Shown here: piece after piece, positions 14,386 through 64,000 of the stretch
Layout of the letters: each line of letters starts with the position of its first letter
How positions within the stretch are numbered: position 1 is the first letter of the stretch
Notes under the pieces: generated by a model
Database searches by the model: none
What the model was told of the DNA's origin: nothing
Seen by the model: only the letters and a program-made list of their open reading frames with translations
Position numbers and translations under genes: made by a program
Source: an uncultured Planctomycetales bacterium
GTDB taxonomy: Bacteria > Omnitrophota > Gorgyraeia > Zapsychrales > JANLHA01
Length of the DNA stretch: 64,000 nucleotides
Direction of reading: 5' to 3'
Assembly: GCA_964489065.1 (NCBI GenBank)
Contig: CAZAXH010000003.1
Coordinates: forward strand, 255,104 to 319,103

Positions 14386-14577
14386 GGTATGTCCCTGTTT
14401 GGCGGAGATGATTTTAAAAATTTTTTTGTCCGATATTTTCAGGAATATAATAAATGCTATTATACAACAGGGAAATTTTAGGGGATATAAAGGATTTATA
14501 TTTATTCTGCCGCATCATGAATTTATTGTGTTTTTGTTTCGTTCATTAAGAATTCATAATATAATGAAAATTAATAT

Positions 14578-14752
14578 TTTATCCAATGAGCATTTAATTT
14601 ACACGACCCAAGGGAGTGTAAACGAGAAATGCGAATTGATCCTTCAGCGAGAGAGTCCAAGCGAACGAGTTGAAGGATATTGGTTAATACCCCGCAGCTT
14701 GCTGCGGTTCATTGAGCCCAGAGCTTGCTCTGGGGTTCATGCCTTTGATTAT
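14578..14752 (+). repeat. R2 structured element, full copy A, in the 5' leader of the giant gene
   Basis: Three hairpins: TTTACAC-N11-GTGTAAA; CCTTCA-N24-TGAAGG; CCGCAGC-TTG-GCTGCGG. Then CCAGAGCTTGCTCTGG and GTTCATGCCTTTGATT. Ends 40 nt before the ATG at 14793. Confidence 0.6.
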
Positions 14753-14792
14753 AAATGTTTTACTATCCCCTTTTAAAAAGAGAGGTCATTCT

Positions 14793-17700
14793 ATGAATAA
14801 GCATTCCTGCCGTATAACAATGATATTTTTGTGTGGGGCGATTTTGACTTTGACTGTGGCCACGGGAGCCGGGGCTAAAGATAACGGAATGAGTTTGACC
14901 GAAAAGGTAGAAAACCTGCTTCGGAAATATGAAACCTTGCGCGATGAAAATCAGGAGATTAAAAATACTCTTGAAGAGGCGGAGGGGCAGGTGGAATTGT
15001 ATAAGGGGAAGTTTATAGAATCGGAAGCCCGGGGGGGGATTCTTCAGAAACAGTTGGAGACGCGTACGCAGGAACTAAAAGAGGCCCAGGCGGCGGTCAA
15101 AGATAAGGAAGGCACCGTGATTCAGGAGGATGAGGCACGGGCGGAACTGGAAGAAACGATCGTTGAATTAAAAGAGGAGAGCAGGCGGCGGGAAGAAACG
15201 ATCCGGGCACTCGAGAAAAAACTCAGAGACACGGAAGCCTCTCAGGAATCCCTGGCTGAGAAGACGGCCTTTGAAAGAGAGGCGGCCGTTCTTAAACGGG
15301 AGAACGAAAGTCTAAAAGAGGATATCCGGAGCCTTGAACAGAAGTTGCAGCAGGCAGACACGGCTTTGAATGACAATATCTCTGCCGCTCAGTTGGCCTT
15401 GAAAAAAGAAATAAAAGAATTGAACGGGGAACTGCAGTTGAAAGGCGCGTTTATCCGCGACGGCGAATTCCAAATAGAATCCTTGAAGAATGAAAACGGC
15501 CGCTTGGTGAAAGAGGCGGAGGATTTGCAGGCGCGTATTCAGGAGCTCACAGCCCGTCACGACAAAAAAGAAGACTCTGTGGCCAGAAAAATAGAGCTTG
15601 CCCGGGAACCGTTACAGAAGAAGATCAATGATTTGCAGGATCAGTTAGAGGCCCTGCAGGCGGAGGTTCCGCGAAAGATAGAGGAGGGCCGCCGGCCTTT
15701 ATTGAGTGAGGTGGAAGAGCTTAGGGACGAGAATGAGGCTTTGAAGAAGTCGATGGAAGAGAAGGTGAGCAGAGTGGAAGAGCCTTTGCAGAGAGAAAAC
15801 GAAGAATTGAAGGCACGGCTGCGGGAGGGGGAAGAAGCCCTTGCCCAGGAAAGCCGCCGGACGGAGCAGTTAGTCGAGGAAAAAATCGGTGCGATAAAAA
15901 AACAGCTTGAGGGGACGGAAGCGTCTTTGGAGGAGAAAGACAGGGAAATTCTTTCTTTGAAAGCGGAACTGGAGAAGGGCGGACAACTCGCTGCTGCGGC
16001 GGAAGGAGAGAAGCAGAAAATAATCAAGGATGCGAAGGACCAGGAAAGAAATTTGCGGCAGCAGGTTGCGGCGCTGGAGAAAGACTTGAAAGCTGCTGAG
16101 AAAAAAGAATCCGCGAAGTCTGTTCGTGAAAAGGAAAATTTGAGGAAAGAGAACGCGGACCTGCAGGCAAGAATTCAGTCGTTAGAAAGTTCCATCCCTG
16201 AAAAAGTAGGGCAGGCCAAGAAACCGCTGATGGAGAGAATTGACAGTTTGCTGGCTGATATGGAGCAGGCGCAAAAGAAAATGGACGCCGAGGTTCAGCA
16301 GGTCCGGGAAGCTTTGGAGGAGAAAGTGTCTGCCCTGGAAGAAGATTTGAGACAGGAACGTGAGAGAAAGAACGACAGCACGGCTGCTCAGGAAGACACG
16401 TTACGTAAGAAAATCGCAGAGCTGGAACAGCAATTGAAAGAGGCGGATACGGTCGCTGCTGAGAAAGTGGCCGCATCCCAAGCCCTGTGGCAGGATAAGA
16501 TTGCCGCTTTGGAGCAGCAGCTGGCGGATCAGAAAGCGGCGTTGCCGGGACAGATCAATCAGGCCAAGAGAGTTGCGGATGAAGAAGTGAAATTGCTGAA
16601 AGCCCAACTGAGAGAGAAAGATTTGACTCTTTCGGCCCAGGAAGAGTCTCTCAAGAAAAATCATGAGGTCAAGTTGCAGAGATGGCAGAAGGATTTGAAA
16701 TCGGCCCAGGATAAAGTCAAAAACCAGGAAGCTGAAATCCGCGGGAAAGAAACGGCTTTGGAGCAAGCCACTCGGGAACTGGAAGCCGTTCGAGCCAGGA
16801 GCGAATCGTATCAGAAGGACATGGCTGCACTCCGTGATCAGTTGAAAAACAGGGAGCAGCAGACAGATCAGATTGTTCAAGAGCGGACGGCGAACTATCA
16901 GGCACGGATAGCCGAGCTGGAAGGGGAATTGAAGAAGATCCGGGAAGACAGCGAGGCCAGATTAGCGGGTGTGATGGATAAAAACGAACAGGAAATGGAA
17001 CGGCTGCGGGAACAGATGAAAGCCAAGGAAGACACCATATCGGAGCGGATTGCCCGGGCCAAACAGCCGTTGGAAGAAGAGATCCGGGGGCTGAACAAAG
17101 AGTTGCGGGCTAAGAAGAATGCCGGTCAAGAGGATAGTCAGGCCGCCCAGAAGCTGTTGGAAGACAGAATTAAAGAACTGGAAGAGCAACTGCAGAAAAC
17201 CGAGAATGCCTTGAATCAACAAGTTGAGGAGGCGAAGGAACCTCTTATAGAAAAAATTCACGCGTTGGAAGAAGCGATAAAAAACGCCGGGGCCGCGGCT
17301 TCGGCGAAGGTGGAAAGCGAGAAAGCGCCGCTCGTGGAACAAATCCGGGTGTTGGAGGAAAGACTTTCGGAAAAGAATGCGCTTTGGCCGGAAAAGATGG
17401 AAGCAGAAAAAGCCCCCTTGCGGGAGAGGATACAGGCCCTGGAAAATCGCCTTAAGGAAAAAGACATTGAGCTTAAAGTAAAGGTCGAGGAGGCGCAGTC
17501 CTCTTTAAATACAGAAATTGTAAAGTTGAAAGAAGATCTGAACGCCACGCGGAAAGAGCATGAGGCCCGGTTGAAAGAAGAGCAGCGCGCCCAGAAAGAG
17601 GTCGTTGAACAGATCAGGAAGGATTTCGAAGATTATAAAAATTCTGAACCTGACAGGATCGCCGCAGCCAAACAGCCTTTAGAGGCGAAGGTGGGAGAGT

Positions 17701-20700
17701 TGCAGAAAGATTTGAAAGAAGCGAAGAGCCGGAAAGATGAAACACGGAAGGCCACCCAGAAACCTCTGGAAGATAAGATCAAGGAACTGGAAGCCAAGTT
17801 AAAGGATCAGGAAGCCGGGTGGGCCGCGAAGGGCGAGGAGGCAAAAACTCCGCTTGTCGAAAAAATTCAGTCTCTCGAGGACGCTTTGAAAGAGCAGGCG
17901 TCTTCCGTAGAAGCCAGGATTGAAGAAGTAAAAGCCCCGCTGCTTGAACAGGTTCGGGCTTTGGAGCAAAGACTCGCGGAAAAGGAATCCCTTTGGCCGC
18001 GGAAAGAGGATGAAGTCAAGGCTCCTTTGATGGAAGAGATTCAAACCCTTAAGCAGCGTCTTGAAGAAAAGAATTCCGAAACAGACCTCAGAATTGCCGA
18101 GGCACAGTCAGCGTTGAAAGAAAACATAGCGGTTTTGAAAGAAGATTTGCGCGCGGCCCGGGCTGATTCGGAAGCCAGGATTAAGGCCGAACAGGAAATC
18201 AGCCGCCAAGAGGCGGAAAAGATACAGAAGGAATTCAAGGAATACAAAGATACAGAAGCGGAACGTATGGCTCAAGTCAGGCAGCCGTTGGAGAAGAAGA
18301 TTGGAGAGTTGCAGAAAGATTTGAAAGAAGCGAAGAGCCGGAAGGATGAGGCCCGAAAAATCGTTCAGAAACCGCTGGAAGATAAGATTAAGGAGCTTGA
18401 GGCCAGGTTAAAGGATCAGGAAACCGAGTGGGCCGCGAAGGGCGAGGAGGCGCGGGCTCCGCTTGTTGAAAAAATTCAGACGCTTGAGGACGCATTGAAA
18501 GAGCAAGAAGCCGCCATAGAATCCCGGATCGAAGAGGCGAAGGCGCCTTTGCTTGAGCAGTTGCAGGTTTTTGAGAGGAGTTTAACGGAGAAGGAATCCG
18601 GGCTTACCGCTCAAATTGAGGCCGCGCAAGCGCCCTTGAAAGAACAGATTAAAAGTCTCGAGGAAGGGTTGCGGCAAAAGGAGGCAGACGCGGCCTCGAC
18701 GGAAGAGACGGCCCGTTTGGCCCGGGAAGAAGACATCCGTTTGGTTCGGGAAGAAGCGGATGAGCGCCTGAAAGCGGAACAGGAGGCCAGTAAACTCGAG
18801 TTTGAAAAGCTTCAGAAGGAATTTGAAGATTATAAGAACAGTGTTGCAGACATAATGGCCCAGGACAAGCACCCGCTGGAAGAGGCCATAGCGACTTTGC
18901 AGAATGATTTAAAAGAATCTCAGGTCAGGAAAGAAGAAGATATTAAACTCGCTAAAAAACCTTTGGAAGACCGGATTAAAGAACTTGAAAGGGATTTCCG
19001 CAAAAGGGGCGCGGAAATTCAGGAAAAGGTTAAGGAAGCGCAGCGTCCTTTGGAAGAGAATATCGCCCTCCTCAAAAAGGACCTGGAAAATAAAGACAAG
19101 GAGTGGGAGGCCAAGATTGAGGAAGCAAAGTTTCCGTTGGAGGTCAAAGTCCGGGCTTTGGTGCAGAAGTTGGATGAGCGGGATGCGGCGATTTCTCGCG
19201 TGATAAAAAAAGCGAAGGCCCCTCTAGAGAAGCAGGTTGAAACGTTAACAGCGCAGATGGAAGACACGAAGAAGACGGTGGCGCAGCAGGTGGCTCAGGC
19301 TCAGGCGCCGTTGCTTGAAAAGAATGAGGCGTTGAAGAAGCAACTTGAGGAGATGGCCGCCGCAGTTCCCGGCCAAATTGCTGAAGCCAGCAAACCTCTG
19401 CAGGAGAAGATCACTGTTCTTCAAGGCGAATTGGCTGCGGCAAAAGACGCTGTTTCCGGGAAAATCGAAGAAATAAAAGCTCCCTTGCAGGAAAGAATTA
19501 ATTATTTGCTTGAAAAAATGAAAACGGAAGAGGCTCTTTATAAAACTAGCATGAAGGCCGATCAGGAAAAGTTTCAGGAAGAAAAGAATAAGTGGGGAGT
19601 TCAACTGCAAGATAGGGAAGGCATGATTCAGGAGAAAGACCGGGAGATCAAACAGCTGGCGAAAGACAAGGAGGCCATGCTGAGGGAGCTTGAAATTGCC
19701 GGAGAGAAAAGTGCGAAGCTGAATGAGCTGGTGGAAAAAGCCCGTGGGGAGAGCCAGTCCATGCAATCCGATCTTCCTCAGAAAATCGCGGAGGCCCAGA
19801 AGCCGTTGCAGGAGAAAATCGGCGCGCTGGAAGAGGAAAAACGGGCGATGGAGGCTTCTTTCGCGGAAAAAAGCGCTAAGGTCCAATCCGGACTGGAAGC
19901 CCAGATTCAGCAGTTGAAAGATGCGATAAAAGCGAAAGACGCCGGTCTTCCGGCCCTGATGGAAGAGGCCAAGAAGCCGTTACAGGCGGAAATAAACAGA
20001 TTGCAGGACGAGTTAAAAAACACCCATTCTTCTTTGCCGGAGGAAATTGTCAAGGCGAAGCGCCCGCTGGAAGAGAAGGTGGCGTCTCTGGAACAGTCTT
20101 TGGTGGAAAAGGACCGGGGGCTTCAGAGGTATTTGAAGGAAAAAGATGATCTTAATAAAGAGCTTGTAGCCGCATTAAAAGAGAAGACGACTTTAAATGA
20201 ACGTGTGTTAACCCTTGAGAAAGACCTGACGGCTGTGCAGTCTCAATCCCAGAGCGGGGAAGAGCAAGTTCGGAAAGAGTATGCGCAGAAAATAGCGGAC
20301 TTGCAGGCGGCTTTGGCGAAAGCCCAGCAGGCGCTTTCCGAGGCCGTGGCTTCGGCCAAACAGCCTTTCGTTGATAAGCTTGCCGGCCTGGAAGAGGCCC
20401 TGAAGACAAAAGACGAGGAGCTGTCCCGCCGGGTCGCCGAAGCCCGGGAGCCTCTCGAGGCCAAGATCGCCTCTTTGGAGCAGCAATTGAAGGAGCAGGA
20501 GACGGCCGGCTCACAGAATGTTGAACAGGCCCGGGCGCCGCTTTTGGCCCGGGTTGAAGAATTGACGAACGCTTTAAAAGCCAAGGAGTCCTCGTCCCTT
20601 CAACAGGTCCGGGAAGCCAAAATCCCCCTCGAGGAAGAAATCCGGAAGCTGAAAGCGGAACTGAAGCAAAATAATCAGTCATTGCCGAAACAGCTGCAGG

Positions 20701-21752
20701 ATGTTCAGAAGCCGTTGGAGCAGGAAATCGCGGCTTTAAAAAAGCAGATACAAGATAAAGATAAAGAATTCTCCCAGCAGGACGCTGCGTTGAGGAAATC
20801 CGACGCCAGGCTTCAGCAGACATTAAATGAATTGGCGGTCGTTCAGAAAACGGTTTTGGACCTTACCACGCAAAAGACCCAGGTTGAACAGCAGCTTTTG
20901 GAAAAGAGCAAATTCGTGCCTCAGCTAGTGGAGGACGCCAAGCGTCCTCTGGTTGATGAAATCAACCGTCTGAAAGAGGAGAACAAAGCGAAGGAGAACA
21001 GCTTGCCTCAGAAAGTCGCTGAGGCAAGCCGTCCGTTGGAAGAAAAAATCCTTACCCTGGAAAACGATCTGCGGCAGGCACAGTCATCGGTAAAGACACA
21101 AATCGAAGAAGCCCGCAAGCCCCTGGAGCAAAAAGTTGCCGCTTTGGAGAAACAAAATAAAGAAACCGAGGGCACGGTTAAAAGTAAACTGGCTGAGGCG
21201 AAGAAACCGCTGGAGTCCAGGATTAAAGCCTTGGAGGAAGAACTTAAGTCCGCCCAGAAACAGTCAGCCCAGCAGGTGGCGCAGGAAAAAAGCGCCGCCG
21301 ATAAGAAGGTTGCCGATTTGCAGCAACAGCTCGGTGCGCTTCAAAAGATGACGAAGGAAAAGGAGACCGCTATTCAGGATATGGAAAAAGAGCTTGACCG
21401 TATTACGATCAGCCTGTCCGCCGTTCAGCAGGAGAATATTTTCTTGAACAATGAGTTGGCGGAAGCCAAGAAATCTCTTCAAACGATTCAAGGTGATCTG
21501 GAGAATAAATATTCCAGAAAACAGGGCGAACTGGAAGATAAAGTCAGTTTTCTTATGGGCGTTATTGACCAAAAAGACGCCCTTTTGCAGGAACAGGTTA
21601 ATCTGGTGGCGGAGAAAGAAAAGCAGATTTCCGCTCTCACCCGGGAGGCTGATGACCTGGCGAAAGATTACTTTGCAATTCTGGATAAGAATGTATCTTT
21701 AAGCGAACGGCTTGAGAAGCTTGAGAAACAACAGGCGGCTCCGGCTAGGTAA
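14793..21752 (+). CDS. Giant secreted repeat protein of ~2,320 aa, built from apolipoprotein-like proline-punctuated amphipathic helices
   Basis: AGAGAGG RBS; signal peptide (ILTLTVATGAGA); about 60 units of ~29 aa of the form [AE]K.PL.E.I..LE..LKE; no Cys beyond the signal peptide. I prefer the ATG at 14793 over the ORF-track start at 14712, whose extra N-terminus translates the R2 repeat. Confidence 0.85.
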   Translation: MNKHSCRITMIFLCGAILTLTVATGAGAKDNGMSLTEKVENLLRKYETLRDENQEIKNTLEEAEGQVELYKGKFIESEARGGILQKQLETRTQELKEAQAAVKDKEGTVIQEDEARAELEETIVELKEESRRREETIRALEKKLRDTEASQESLAEKTAFEREAAVLKRENESLKEDIRSLEQKLQQADTALNDNISAAQLALKKEIKELNGELQLKGAFIRDGEFQIESLKNENGRLVKEAEDLQARIQELTARHDKKEDSVARKIELAREPLQKKINDLQDQLEALQAEVPRKIEEGRRPLLSEVEELRDENEALKKSMEEKVSRVEEPLQRENEELKARLREGEEALAQESRRTEQLVEEKIGAIKKQLEGTEASLEEKDREILSLKAELEKGGQLAAAAEGEKQKIIKDAKDQERNLRQQVAALEKDLKAAEKKESAKSVREKENLRKENADLQARIQSLESSIPEKVGQAKKPLMERIDSLLADMEQAQKKMDAEVQQVREALEEKVSALEEDLRQERERKNDSTAAQEDTLRKKIAELEQQLKEADTVAAEKVAASQALWQDKIAALEQQLADQKAALPGQINQAKRVADEEVKLLKAQLREKDLTLSAQEESLKKNHEVKLQRWQKDLKSAQDKVKNQEAEIRGKETALEQATRELEAVRARSESYQKDMAALRDQLKNREQQTDQIVQERTANYQARIAELEGELKKIREDSEARLAGVMDKNEQEMERLREQMKAKEDTISERIARAKQPLEEEIRGLNKELRAKKNAGQEDSQAAQKLLEDRIKELEEQLQKTENALNQQVEEAKEPLIEKIHALEEAIKNAGAAASAKVESEKAPLVEQIRVLEERLSEKNALWPEKMEAEKAPLRERIQALENRLKEKDIELKVKVEEAQSSLNTEIVKLKEDLNATRKEHEARLKEEQRAQKEVVEQIRKDFEDYKNSEPDRIAAAKQPLEAKVGELQKDLKEAKSRKDETRKATQKPLEDKIKELEAKLKDQEAGWAAKGEEAKTPLVEKIQSLEDALKEQASSVEARIEEVKAPLLEQVRALEQRLAEKESLWPRKEDEVKAPLMEEIQTLKQRLEEKNSETDLRIAEAQSALKENIAVLKEDLRAARADSEARIKAEQEISRQEAEKIQKEFKEYKDTEAERMAQVRQPLEKKIGELQKDLKEAKSRKDEARKIVQKPLEDKIKELEARLKDQETEWAAKGEEARAPLVEKIQTLEDALKEQEAAIESRIEEAKAPLLEQLQVFERSLTEKESGLTAQIEAAQAPLKEQIKSLEEGLRQKEADAASTEETARLAREEDIRLVREEADERLKAEQEASKLEFEKLQKEFEDYKNSVADIMAQDKHPLEEAIATLQNDLKESQVRKEEDIKLAKKPLEDRIKELERDFRKRGAEIQEKVKEAQRPLEENIALLKKDLENKDKEWEAKIEEAKFPLEVKVRALVQKLDERDAAISRVIKKAKAPLEKQVETLTAQMEDTKKTVAQQVAQAQAPLLEKNEALKKQLEEMAAAVPGQIAEASKPLQEKITVLQGELAAAKDAVSGKIEEIKAPLQERINYLLEKMKTEEALYKTSMKADQEKFQEEKNKWGVQLQDREGMIQEKDREIKQLAKDKEAMLRELEIAGEKSAKLNELVEKARGESQSMQSDLPQKIAEAQKPLQEKIGALEEEKRAMEASFAEKSAKVQSGLEAQIQQLKDAIKAKDAGLPALMEEAKKPLQAEINRLQDELKNTHSSLPEEIVKAKRPLEEKVASLEQSLVEKDRGLQRYLKEKDDLNKELVAALKEKTTLNERVLTLEKDLTAVQSQSQSGEEQVRKEYAQKIADLQAALAKAQQALSEAVASAKQPFVDKLAGLEEALKTKDEELSRRVAEAREPLEAKIASLEQQLKEQETAGSQNVEQARAPLLARVEELTNALKAKESSSLQQVREAKIPLEEEIRKLKAELKQNNQSLPKQLQDVQKPLEQEIAALKKQIQDKDKEFSQQDAALRKSDARLQQTLNELAVVQKTVLDLTTQKTQVEQQLLEKSKFVPQLVEDAKRPLVDEINRLKEENKAKENSLPQKVAEASRPLEEKILTLENDLRQAQSSVKTQIEEARKPLEQKVAALEKQNKETEGTVKSKLAEAKKPLESRIKALEEELKSAQKQSAQQVAQEKSAADKKVADLQQQLGALQKMTKEKETAIQDMEKELDRITISLSAVQQENIFLNNELAEAKKSLQTIQGDLENKYSRKQGELEDKVSFLMGVIDQKDALLQEQVNLVAEKEKQISALTREADDLAKDYFAILDKNVSLSERLEKLEKQQAAPAR

Positions 21753-21773
21753 CATGAACAGGATAAGGAGATT

Positions 21774-22955
21774 ATGCAATATTTTGATTTAAGACAGAGA
21801 GACTGTTTGGCGGTCCCGTTCGTTTTTATGGTATGTCTGACAGGCCTCGGGGCCGGGGCCGTTTTGGCTGAAACCGGAGACGGGCAGCCCTTTTCATACC
21901 GCCGGGAATTGATCAACAAGGAGTTGTCTCAACAGGAAATATTAGGCGTTGAATCCGGGGACAAAAATACGGGAGCGGCGGCTGATATGGGCTCCTCTTC
22001 TCTCCGTTCTCCTGGGGAGGCCGGGACAGCCGCGGCCGGAGGTTTCCAGGAATCGGGACGAAAACCGCCTCGTCTTTCCCTGGAAAAGGATAAGGCGGTT
22101 ACGCAAGCTATGAACCGTGTTGAAATGGGGCTGGAGAGTTTTGGGTTCAGTTACAATGAACCCGGAGTTATGAAAGATCGAGGGGTCCTGACGGGTGTTT
22201 ACGGGATTTACACGCATTGGATTTCGGACAACCGGCATATCAAGACGCTGAAAGACGCCTGGCACGATAAACTGAAAGTTAATAAGTTTTCTTTTGAAGG
22301 CCGTTTTGCCGGAGGGGACGTGAATTATAAGTCTGAAGAAACCGGGACGCGGGACGGGTTGAATTTTTATACGTTTGAACTCCGAGGGCTTTTGGCTTAT
22401 GAGATGCCGATCATTCCCTCCGGGGCCATTACGCCGTTTTTCGGGGTGGGGTTCCGTTATCTTAGAGACGACGGAGGCGGCAAGGTCAGCTCAACGAATC
22501 ATTGGTTTTATGACCGGGAAAGCCGGTATTTTTACCTGCCTATCGGGGTTGAAGTCACCCGTCAGTTGAAGAACCGCTGGTCGGTCGGCCTGACCTGCGA
22601 ATATGACATTTTTCTTGTGGGGAAGCAAAAGAGCCACCTTGAGGACGGCGGGGCAACAGTGCTTTCCTCCAGCGATGGGCAGCTATATGTTTTGGATACG
22701 CTGGAGAATGACCAGGAAGAGGGGTTCGGGTTGAGAGGGTCCCTTAAATTTACGAAAAGCCATGATAAATGGGATTTCGTTTTCGAACCGTTTGTGCGTT
22801 ACTGGGCGCTGAAAGATTCCCAACTGGCACAGTGGACCTCCAACAGCGGCAGTATTTTATGGTATTATGACCCGGCCCGGGAGTATCCTGTTTACGGGTA
22901 TGAACCGGAAAACAATACTACGGAATACGGGGTGCGGGTGGGTTTTTATTATTGA
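21774..22955 (+). CDS. Putative outer-membrane beta-barrel protein, co-transcribed with the giant gene
   Basis: Signal peptide, a Gly/Ala/Ser-rich linker, then about 280 aa of alternating hydrophobic dyads (WSVGLTCEYDIFLV, FGLRGSLKFT, WDFVFEPFVRYWAL) ending in an aromatic C-terminus (VGFYY). Starts 22 nt after the giant ORF, with a GGAG RBS. Confidence 0.55.
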   Translation: MQYFDLRQRDCLAVPFVFMVCLTGLGAGAVLAETGDGQPFSYRRELINKELSQQEILGVESGDKNTGAAADMGSSSLRSPGEAGTAAAGGFQESGRKPPRLSLEKDKAVTQAMNRVEMGLESFGFSYNEPGVMKDRGVLTGVYGIYTHWISDNRHIKTLKDAWHDKLKVNKFSFEGRFAGGDVNYKSEETGTRDGLNFYTFELRGLLAYEMPIIPSGAITPFFGVGFRYLRDDGGGKVSSTNHWFYDRESRYFYLPIGVEVTRQLKNRWSVGLTCEYDIFLVGKQKSHLEDGGATVLSSSDGQLYVLDTLENDQEEGFGLRGSLKFTKSHDKWDFVFEPFVRYWALKDSQLAQWTSNSGSILWYYDPAREYPVYGYEPENNTTEYGVRVGFYY

Positions 22956-22992: not shown

Positions 22993-23130
22993 TTTTATCT
23001 GCCTTCGCCGGAGACCGATGATGAACGCGAGAGGATGGGCCCTTCTGCTCCGGGATGTCCGCACGTATGTTAAGAAGTCATATCCTTCCGCGAAGGGAAC
23101 AGGTAGCATAGGCACCGCGCTTATGGCACG
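22993..23130 (+). repeat. R1 intergenic repeat, copy d
   Basis: CTGCCTTCGCCGGAGACC...CGGGATGTCCGCACGTATGTTAAGAAG...CTTCCGCGAAGGGAAC...CCGCGCTTATGGCACGG. Confidence 0.55.
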
Positions 23131-61687: not shown

Positions 61688-61728
61688 TCCAGAGCTTGCA
61701 CTGGGGGTCATGCCTTTGATTTTCGAAT
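61688..61728 (+). repeat. R2 element, 3'-terminal fragment (copy D)
   Basis: CCAGAGCTTGCACTGGGGGTCATGCCTTTGATT matches the last ~35 nt of R2-A and R2-B. Ends 7-19 nt before the next start codon. Confidence 0.4.
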
Positions 61729-62337: not shown

Positions 62338-62406
62338 AGGCCCTGCATCTTGGAATTCACGTTTTTGTTTTTCATTCAATCCTGCGTTTTTAGCGCAGGA
62401 TTTTTT

Positions 62407-62580
62407 ATTCAATGAGCATTTAGTTTACACGACCCAAGGGAGTGTAAACTAGAAATGCGAATTGATCCTGAGCGCGAGTGAGCCCAAGCGAACGAGTTGC
62501 AGGATGTTGGTTTCATACCCTGCAGTTTCCTGCGTTTCATTGAGTCCAGAGCTTTCTCTGGGGTTTATACCTTTGATTTT
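62407..62580 (+). repeat. R2 structured element, full copy B
   Basis: About 85% identical to R2-A. The same three hairpins are present, with the middle stem changed in a compensatory way (CCTGAG.../...TTGCAGG versus CCTTCA/TGAAGG). Confidence 0.6.
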
Positions 62581-63904: not shown

Positions 63905-64000
63905 GCGAATTGATCCTCCCGCGCGAGTGAGCCAAGCAACGAGCCGAAGGAGGTGGGTTAATCCCCGCGGCGTGCTGCGGTTCATTGAGTCCAGAGCTTG
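63905..64000 (+). repeat. R2 structured element, copy C, truncated by the window end
   Basis: GCGAATTGATCC-TCC-CGCGCGAGTGAGCCAAGCAACGAGCCGAAGGAGG...CCCGCGGCGTGCTGCGGTTCATTGAGTCCAGAGCTTG. The middle stem again covaries (CCTCC/GGAGG). Confidence 0.5.

Follow-up and report, generated by a model that had tools for sequence, protein, structure and literature searches.

A giant exported protein with a 29-residue helical repeat, a candidate cell-envelope fibre of an uncultivated Omnitrophota bacterium, and the OpcA-like barrel encoded beside it

We examined a 64,000-nucleotide stretch of DNA (the window) from an activated-sludge bacterium of the Omnitrophota that has not been cultivated. A protein of 2,319 residues encoded there, hereafter the giant, is for the most part phased on a 29-residue repeat; its gene is followed on the same strand by that of a 393-residue protein predicted to be an outer-membrane (OM) β-barrel (Table 1). 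Tentatively, and with a probability of about 0.4, we read the giant as an exported fibre with a structural role in the cell envelope and the barrel as a lineage-specific accessory. The giant represents an undescribed and uncharacterised family, with no characterised homologue and no family match in Pfam, NCBIfam or the PDB, in line with the first-pass annotation of this DNA, which had named no characterised function for such a pair.

Table 1. Features of the giant–barrel locus, in window coordinates
Feature	Position	Strand	Basis or remark
R2, dispersed ~176-bp intergenic repeat with two GC hairpins	14577..14750	+	88% copy at 62403-62578
Giant gene RBS AGAGAGG, 7 nt 5′ of the ATG	14779..14785	+	direct sequence reading
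Giant gene, 2,319-aa protein read as exported, all-helical and fibrous (segmented coiled coil)	14793..21752	+	ORF, periodicity, orthologues
Giant putative signal peptide, residues 1-28, MNKHSCRITMIFLCGAILTLTVATGAGA/KD	14793..14876	+	sequence; n-h-c layout kept in orthologues
Giant N-terminal Pro-free canonical heptad coiled-coil segment, residues ~29-230	14877..15482	+	windowed Fourier peak 3.50-3.51
Giant longest 29/8 region, residues ~667-1623, about 33 units	16791..19661	+	periodicity peak 3.61-3.66 throughout; phase map
Giant C-terminal Pro-free heptad domain, residues 2150-2319	21240..21749	+	periodicity 3.53-3.56; best-conserved part
Barrel gene RBS AAGGAG, within the 21-nt spacer after the giant TAA	21765..21770	+	sequence
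Barrel gene, 393-aa OpcA-like outer-membrane protein (predicted)	21774..22955	+	
Barrel putative signal peptide, residues 1-32, GAVLA/ETGDG	21774..21869	+	sequence; hydrophobic N-terminal segment aligned across homologues
Barrel predicted periplasmic N-terminal tail, residues 33-113	21870..22112	+	pLDDT below 50 outside the helix
Ten-stranded β-barrel, residues 114-393, C-terminal FYY (VGFYY)	22113..22952	+	predicted structure
R1 core, short intergenic repeat 3′ of the barrel gene	23052..23077	+	copies with ≤4 mismatches

The giant ORF is unbroken from its ATG at 14793 to the TAA stop at 21750-21752. Its N-terminal 28 residues, ending in GAGA/KD, were assigned by eye as a Sec-type signal peptide; Sec-type signal peptides are predicted on the family giants as well, although the cleavage motif is poor in the orthologue of L005, and the segment may act as an anchor that is never cleaved. 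Two Cys residues occur in the precursor, at 6 and 14, both within this putative signal peptide, so that the earlier statement that the giant has no Cys stands for the mature protein and fails for the precursor. No lipobox was found, and Cys is missing altogether from the L005 orthologue. Pfam and NCBIfam searches yielded no TPS domain, and no secretion signal beyond Sec and no barrel domain of its own were found in the giant.

By BLOSUM autocorrelation the giant scored 0.675 at lag 29, compared with −0.375 ± 0.041 in 1000 shuffled sequences (z = 25.5), with more peaks at 58, 87 and 203 (7 × 29), and 29 Pro-Pro pairs were spaced 29 residues apart (expectation 1.15, at most 6). The description of an exported, Pro-punctuated helical repeat protein is thus borne out, while the figure of about 60 units was too high, as 38 units were counted with the strict P[LF] motif and 49 with an HMM of the unit. 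The consensus unit reads A-K-x-P-L-E-E-K-I-x-x-L-E-x-x-L-K-E-K-E-A-x-[LVW]-x-E-K-[IV]-E-E. Within the longest repeat region the phase map placed 18 units in one phase (residues 759-1281) and 8 further units in one phase (residues 1361-1564), and a 203-aa duplication of seven units was found (953-1155 and 1156-1358).

The global hydrophobic period of the giant is 3.63 (29/8). Blocks with this period alternate with Pro-free heptad blocks of period 3.5, Pro being confined to the former, and canonical heptad coiled coil makes up about a quarter of the chain. Hydrophobic residues, 23% of the chain, form a seam ∼75° wide with Ala on one edge and Pro at −106°, and the seam is flanked by K/R on one side, with E/D opposite. 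Across the giant family, the motif spacings equal 29 plus an integer number of heptads, such as 78 (29 + 49) and 71 (29 + 42). An AF2 model of residues 940-1600 (single sequence, pLDDT 69.6) contained helices of 50-165 residues that pass through most of the PL prolines; it is a model of the monomer with a pTM of 0.24, and its tertiary packing is unreliable. A narrow continuous seam, periodicities of 3.5 or 3.6-3.67 and long helices, by which coiled coils are recognised, are thus all found in the giant, and the seam width, the alternation of 3.5 and 3.63 and the 29-plus-heptad spacings together favour a coiled coil built in segments.

Three independent MAGs yielded full-length orthologues (about 2,276, 2,319 and 2,306 aa), at identities of 91%, 70% and 38%; the L004 ORF as called, 2,335 aa, counts 16 codons 5′ of the ATG. 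Partial copies lie on three metagenome contigs. The giant is therefore not an assembly artefact, and the repeat array carries none of the assembly breaks that had been named as a risk. Its length is held at 2,276-2,319 aa while identity drops to 38%, and the indels among orthologues either span 29 residues or add up to about 29. Of 52 Pro residues 40 are kept, and conservation peaks at the termini: compared with L005 (38% identity on average), identity reaches 47% over the first 58 residues and 64-65% over the C-terminal domain, which contains SAVQQENIFLNN, FLMG and EADDLAKDYFAILDKNVSL and is conserved also in the RS_10_7 orthologue P0067. Only 50 representatives turned up in a set of 1.84 billion proteins, which makes this a rare family; they vary in length between 1.3 kaa and over 4 kaa, and those with a name all come from Omnitrophota.

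The downstream protein had been described as an OM β-barrel with a flexible N-terminal linker, which the predicted structure supports. Its ten antiparallel strands (residues 114-129, 133-149, 171-187, 191-208, 217-233, 247-264, 269-288, 317-329, 334-346 and 380-392) and aromatic C-terminus make it a small barrel of the OpcA-like kind. Compared with OpcA of Neisseria meningitidis (PDB 2vdf; PF07239), it shares 17% identity and differs by the extra ∼80-residue N-terminal periplasmic tail and by invariant motifs of its own. The tail starts with a short conserved helix (residues 41-56, YRRELINKELSQQEIL), whose motif R..xI..xL is common to the barrel family and is followed by two Cys in most members, and continues as a predicted disordered Gly/Ala/Ser-rich linker. 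The most conserved motifs of the family (YDRES, QKSHLED, ENDQ and EPxNNTTE, all invariant) lie not in this tail but at strand ends and in loops on the predicted extracellular side, and the giant-linked barrel clade has two enlarged loops. In Pfam the window barrel matched PF13505 alone (E = 0.019, below the cutoff) and reached no threshold, while among 41 relatives PF07239 was matched in 4, PF03797 in 27 and PF13505 in 17.

The arrangement of the two genes is operon-like: a 21-nt spacer (7-33 nt in orthologues) separates them, in which no terminator-like site was found, and the barrel gene has its own RBS, as had been noted. Dispersed repeats flank the pair. R2 had been taken for its leader; it is a repeat with further partial copies at 61689-61721 and 63963-64000, present 5′ of the giant in the window and in L004. 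The L003 and L005 orthologues lack R2 in front of their genes, so it is no conserved leader of the operon. The R1 element reported 3′ of the pair was confirmed as a short intergenic repeat, with + strand copies at 2880, 7386 and 26878.

Whether the barrel is the cognate partner of the giant, as had been proposed, bears on the strongest rival to the envelope-fibre reading, namely that the two are functionally unrelated neighbours, a generic OpcA-like barrel having landed or been retained in one lineage beside a giant that works alone. The pair is present in 7/7 contigs and genomes of one narrow lineage, to which it is restricted; the whole neighbourhood is syntenic there, so the conserved adjacency may reflect inheritance alone, and adjacency beyond general synteny, as expected of an obligate pair, was not seen. 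In RS_10_7, a slightly more distant MAG, the giant's orthologue occupies the syntenic position with BacA in the barrel's place, and the barrel is located elsewhere in that MAG (L010); nor was a barrel found near five other family giants, of the 78-spacing type, within their contigs. Relatives of the barrel turn up in 241 species genomes beside mixed neighbours (Tex, a TPR membrane protein, a subtilase and a Na/Pi transporter), a PL-repeat protein being the neighbour at 3 of the 79 barrel-family loci and other genes at 76. Conservation of the pair thus holds inside the lineage and breaks down outside it, and judged by gene context the barrel is not an obligatory partner of the giant. Functional independence is nonetheless rather doubtful in our view, given the short spacer with its separate RBS and no terminator, an adjacency kept while the giant falls to 38% identity, the predicted export of both products to the envelope, and large secreted proteins beside barrel homologues somewhat more often than in the background (5/83 versus 16/887, orthologues removed, by a crude signal-peptide rule).

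The remaining alternatives differ in where the giant goes. As a surface fibril, coat or adhesin it would cross the OM and might be held by the extracellular loops of the barrel, which would suit the invariant motifs clustered at the predicted extracellular rim and the two enlarged loops; OpcA itself is an adhesin. A role in adhesion, as surface adhesins, or in a coat has been proposed for the giant ORFs and proteins of Omnitrophota (PMC10066038), and two giants of another subfamily adjoin Wza/Wzz-type polysaccharide export genes. However, the giant carries a Sec signal only, and no T1SS, T2SS, T5SS or T9SS component was found within about 10 kb of its gene; to our knowledge, a 10-stranded barrel of OpcA size cannot translocate a polypeptide; and the enlarged loops recur in the L006/P0007 barrel clade, which has no giant neighbour. 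We consider a surface location unlikely, and almost negligible the chance that the pair is a split type V system (autotransporter or two-partner), with the giant as a passenger exported by the barrel, in spite of a gene order with the large secreted protein before the barrel and of weak PF03797 matches in 27/41 barrel-family members (best E = 1e-10). The window barrel has no such match, its ten predicted strands are not the 12 or 16 of those systems, Pfam and NCBIfam revealed neither POTRA domains in it nor a TPS domain on the giant, and a read-through fusion is unlikely because the common reading frame of the two genes is lost in L003. The 10-stranded OpcA-like fold rules the barrel out as an autotransporter or Omp85 translocator, and with it the earlier idea of a dedicated export pair.

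Highly improbable, too, is an apolipoprotein-like protein that would bind lipid as an amphipathic belt or scaffold, either periplasmic or at the surface of a membrane. The first-pass annotation had leaned this way, ascribing to the giant an 11/22-mer apolipoprotein logic in preference to a plain coiled coil and naming a lipid-binding scaffold among the plausible roles. Like apoA-I, A-IV and E, the giant has tandem amphipathic helices, in-phase prolines and a near-undistorted-helix periodicity (3.63, close to the 11/3 of apolipoproteins), its charges are laid out in a class-A-like manner with K/R flanking the apolar stripe and E/D opposite, and its mean hydrophobicity and moment (−0.28/0.28) are near those computed from a manually entered apoA-I sequence (−0.22/0.32). 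Unlike those proteins, which have 11- or 22-residue units, broad apolar faces and no heptad segments, it has a 29-residue unit, an apolar arc of only about 75° with few hydrophobic residues, and interspersed heptad blocks; moreover, PF01442 was not matched at E ≤ 0.1, hhalign of the unit profile against apoA-I (the manually entered sequence) gave a probability of 0.2%, and Foldseek returned no apolipoprotein.

Among known envelope proteins, Lpp, OmpM/SlpA (SLH, coiled coil and barrel) and Thermotoga Omp-α are OM-associated coiled coils that set envelope geometry. The giant resembles them as a candidate envelope coiled coil, and differs in that its rod would be 10-50 times longer than the tethers of Lpp, OmpM and Omp-α and that rod and barrel are separate polypeptides; with no OmpA_C or SLH domain in either protein by Pfam and NCBIfam searches and no lipobox in the giant, membership in the OM-peptidoglycan tether class was rejected. 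CrvA is a coiled-coil-rich, filament-forming protein. It determines cell shape from the periplasm of Vibrio cholerae (PMC7695739) and provides a functional precedent for an exported protein acting structurally there, although it is far smaller than the giant and lacks the 29-residue repeat; a cell-shape role for the giant is purely speculative.

Closest in arithmetic is SF-assemblin, a 29-residue segmented coiled coil whose repeat consists of four heptads plus a skip residue, with acidic clusters about every 4 nm, and which forms striated filaments (PMC2119799). It shares with β-giardin and the giant the 29/8 rule (29 residues in 8 turns), but its rod of about 250 residues belongs to the eukaryotic cytoplasm and its repeats are free of Pro, whereas the giant has 2,319 residues, a predicted Sec export signal, one Pro per unit and interspersed pure heptads. 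No Pfam match to SF-assemblin or β-giardin was obtained at E ≤ 0.1, and the likeness is one of design only. FilP and Scy of Streptomyces combine heptads with long non-heptad, hendecad-type coiled coil (about 3.64-3.67) with small, Ala-rich cores (PMC9858780; PMC2680258). As bacterial fibrous proteins mixing heptad and non-heptad segments they offer a model for filament or meshwork assembly; they differ from the giant in being cytoplasmic, with a DivIVA-like N-terminal motif, no signal peptide and no periodic Pro, and no homology to them was found in Pfam or NCBIfam.

For the envelope-fibre reading, we propose that the locus is a two-gene transcription unit whose first product is exported and, having a Sec signal alone, no barrel of its own and no secretion genes nearby, is retained in the envelope. 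The 29-residue unit could be understood as 11 + 11 + 7 residues in eight helical turns (periodicity 3.625); as this equals the pitch of the undistorted α-helix (3.63 residues per turn, PMC9858780), the 29/8 stretches would run essentially straight, while the Pro-free canonical heptad segments would form left-handed supercoils. One conserved Pro per unit, always at the same azimuth beside the hydrophobic seam, would introduce local kinks in register along the rod. The chains would most likely pair or bundle through the narrow seam into a rod, up to about 340 nm long if fully extended and with a 4.3-nm structural period, and the well-conserved Pro-free heptad segments at its N- and C-termini are likely its assembly or attachment ends. 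The analysis shows the ORFs, the repeat with its periodicities, the conserved length, Pro positions and termini, the barrel fold and how the pair is spread among relatives; oligomeric state, envelope location, structural role and any giant–barrel contact are what we infer here. The flexible tail of the barrel probably hangs into the periplasm, and the barrel, as a locally acquired accessory, may tether the fibre to the OM in this lineage; the position of its most conserved motifs, on the predicted extracellular side and away from the tail, speaks against such a link. A 340-nm rod far exceeds the width of the periplasm and would have to run alongside the membranes or double back, and its bulk amphipathicity, near that of apoA-I, leaves a membrane- or lipid-facing role conceivable. 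The giant may thus serve this bacterium as a structural fibre, scaffold or spacer of the envelope, a ‘periskeletal’ element.

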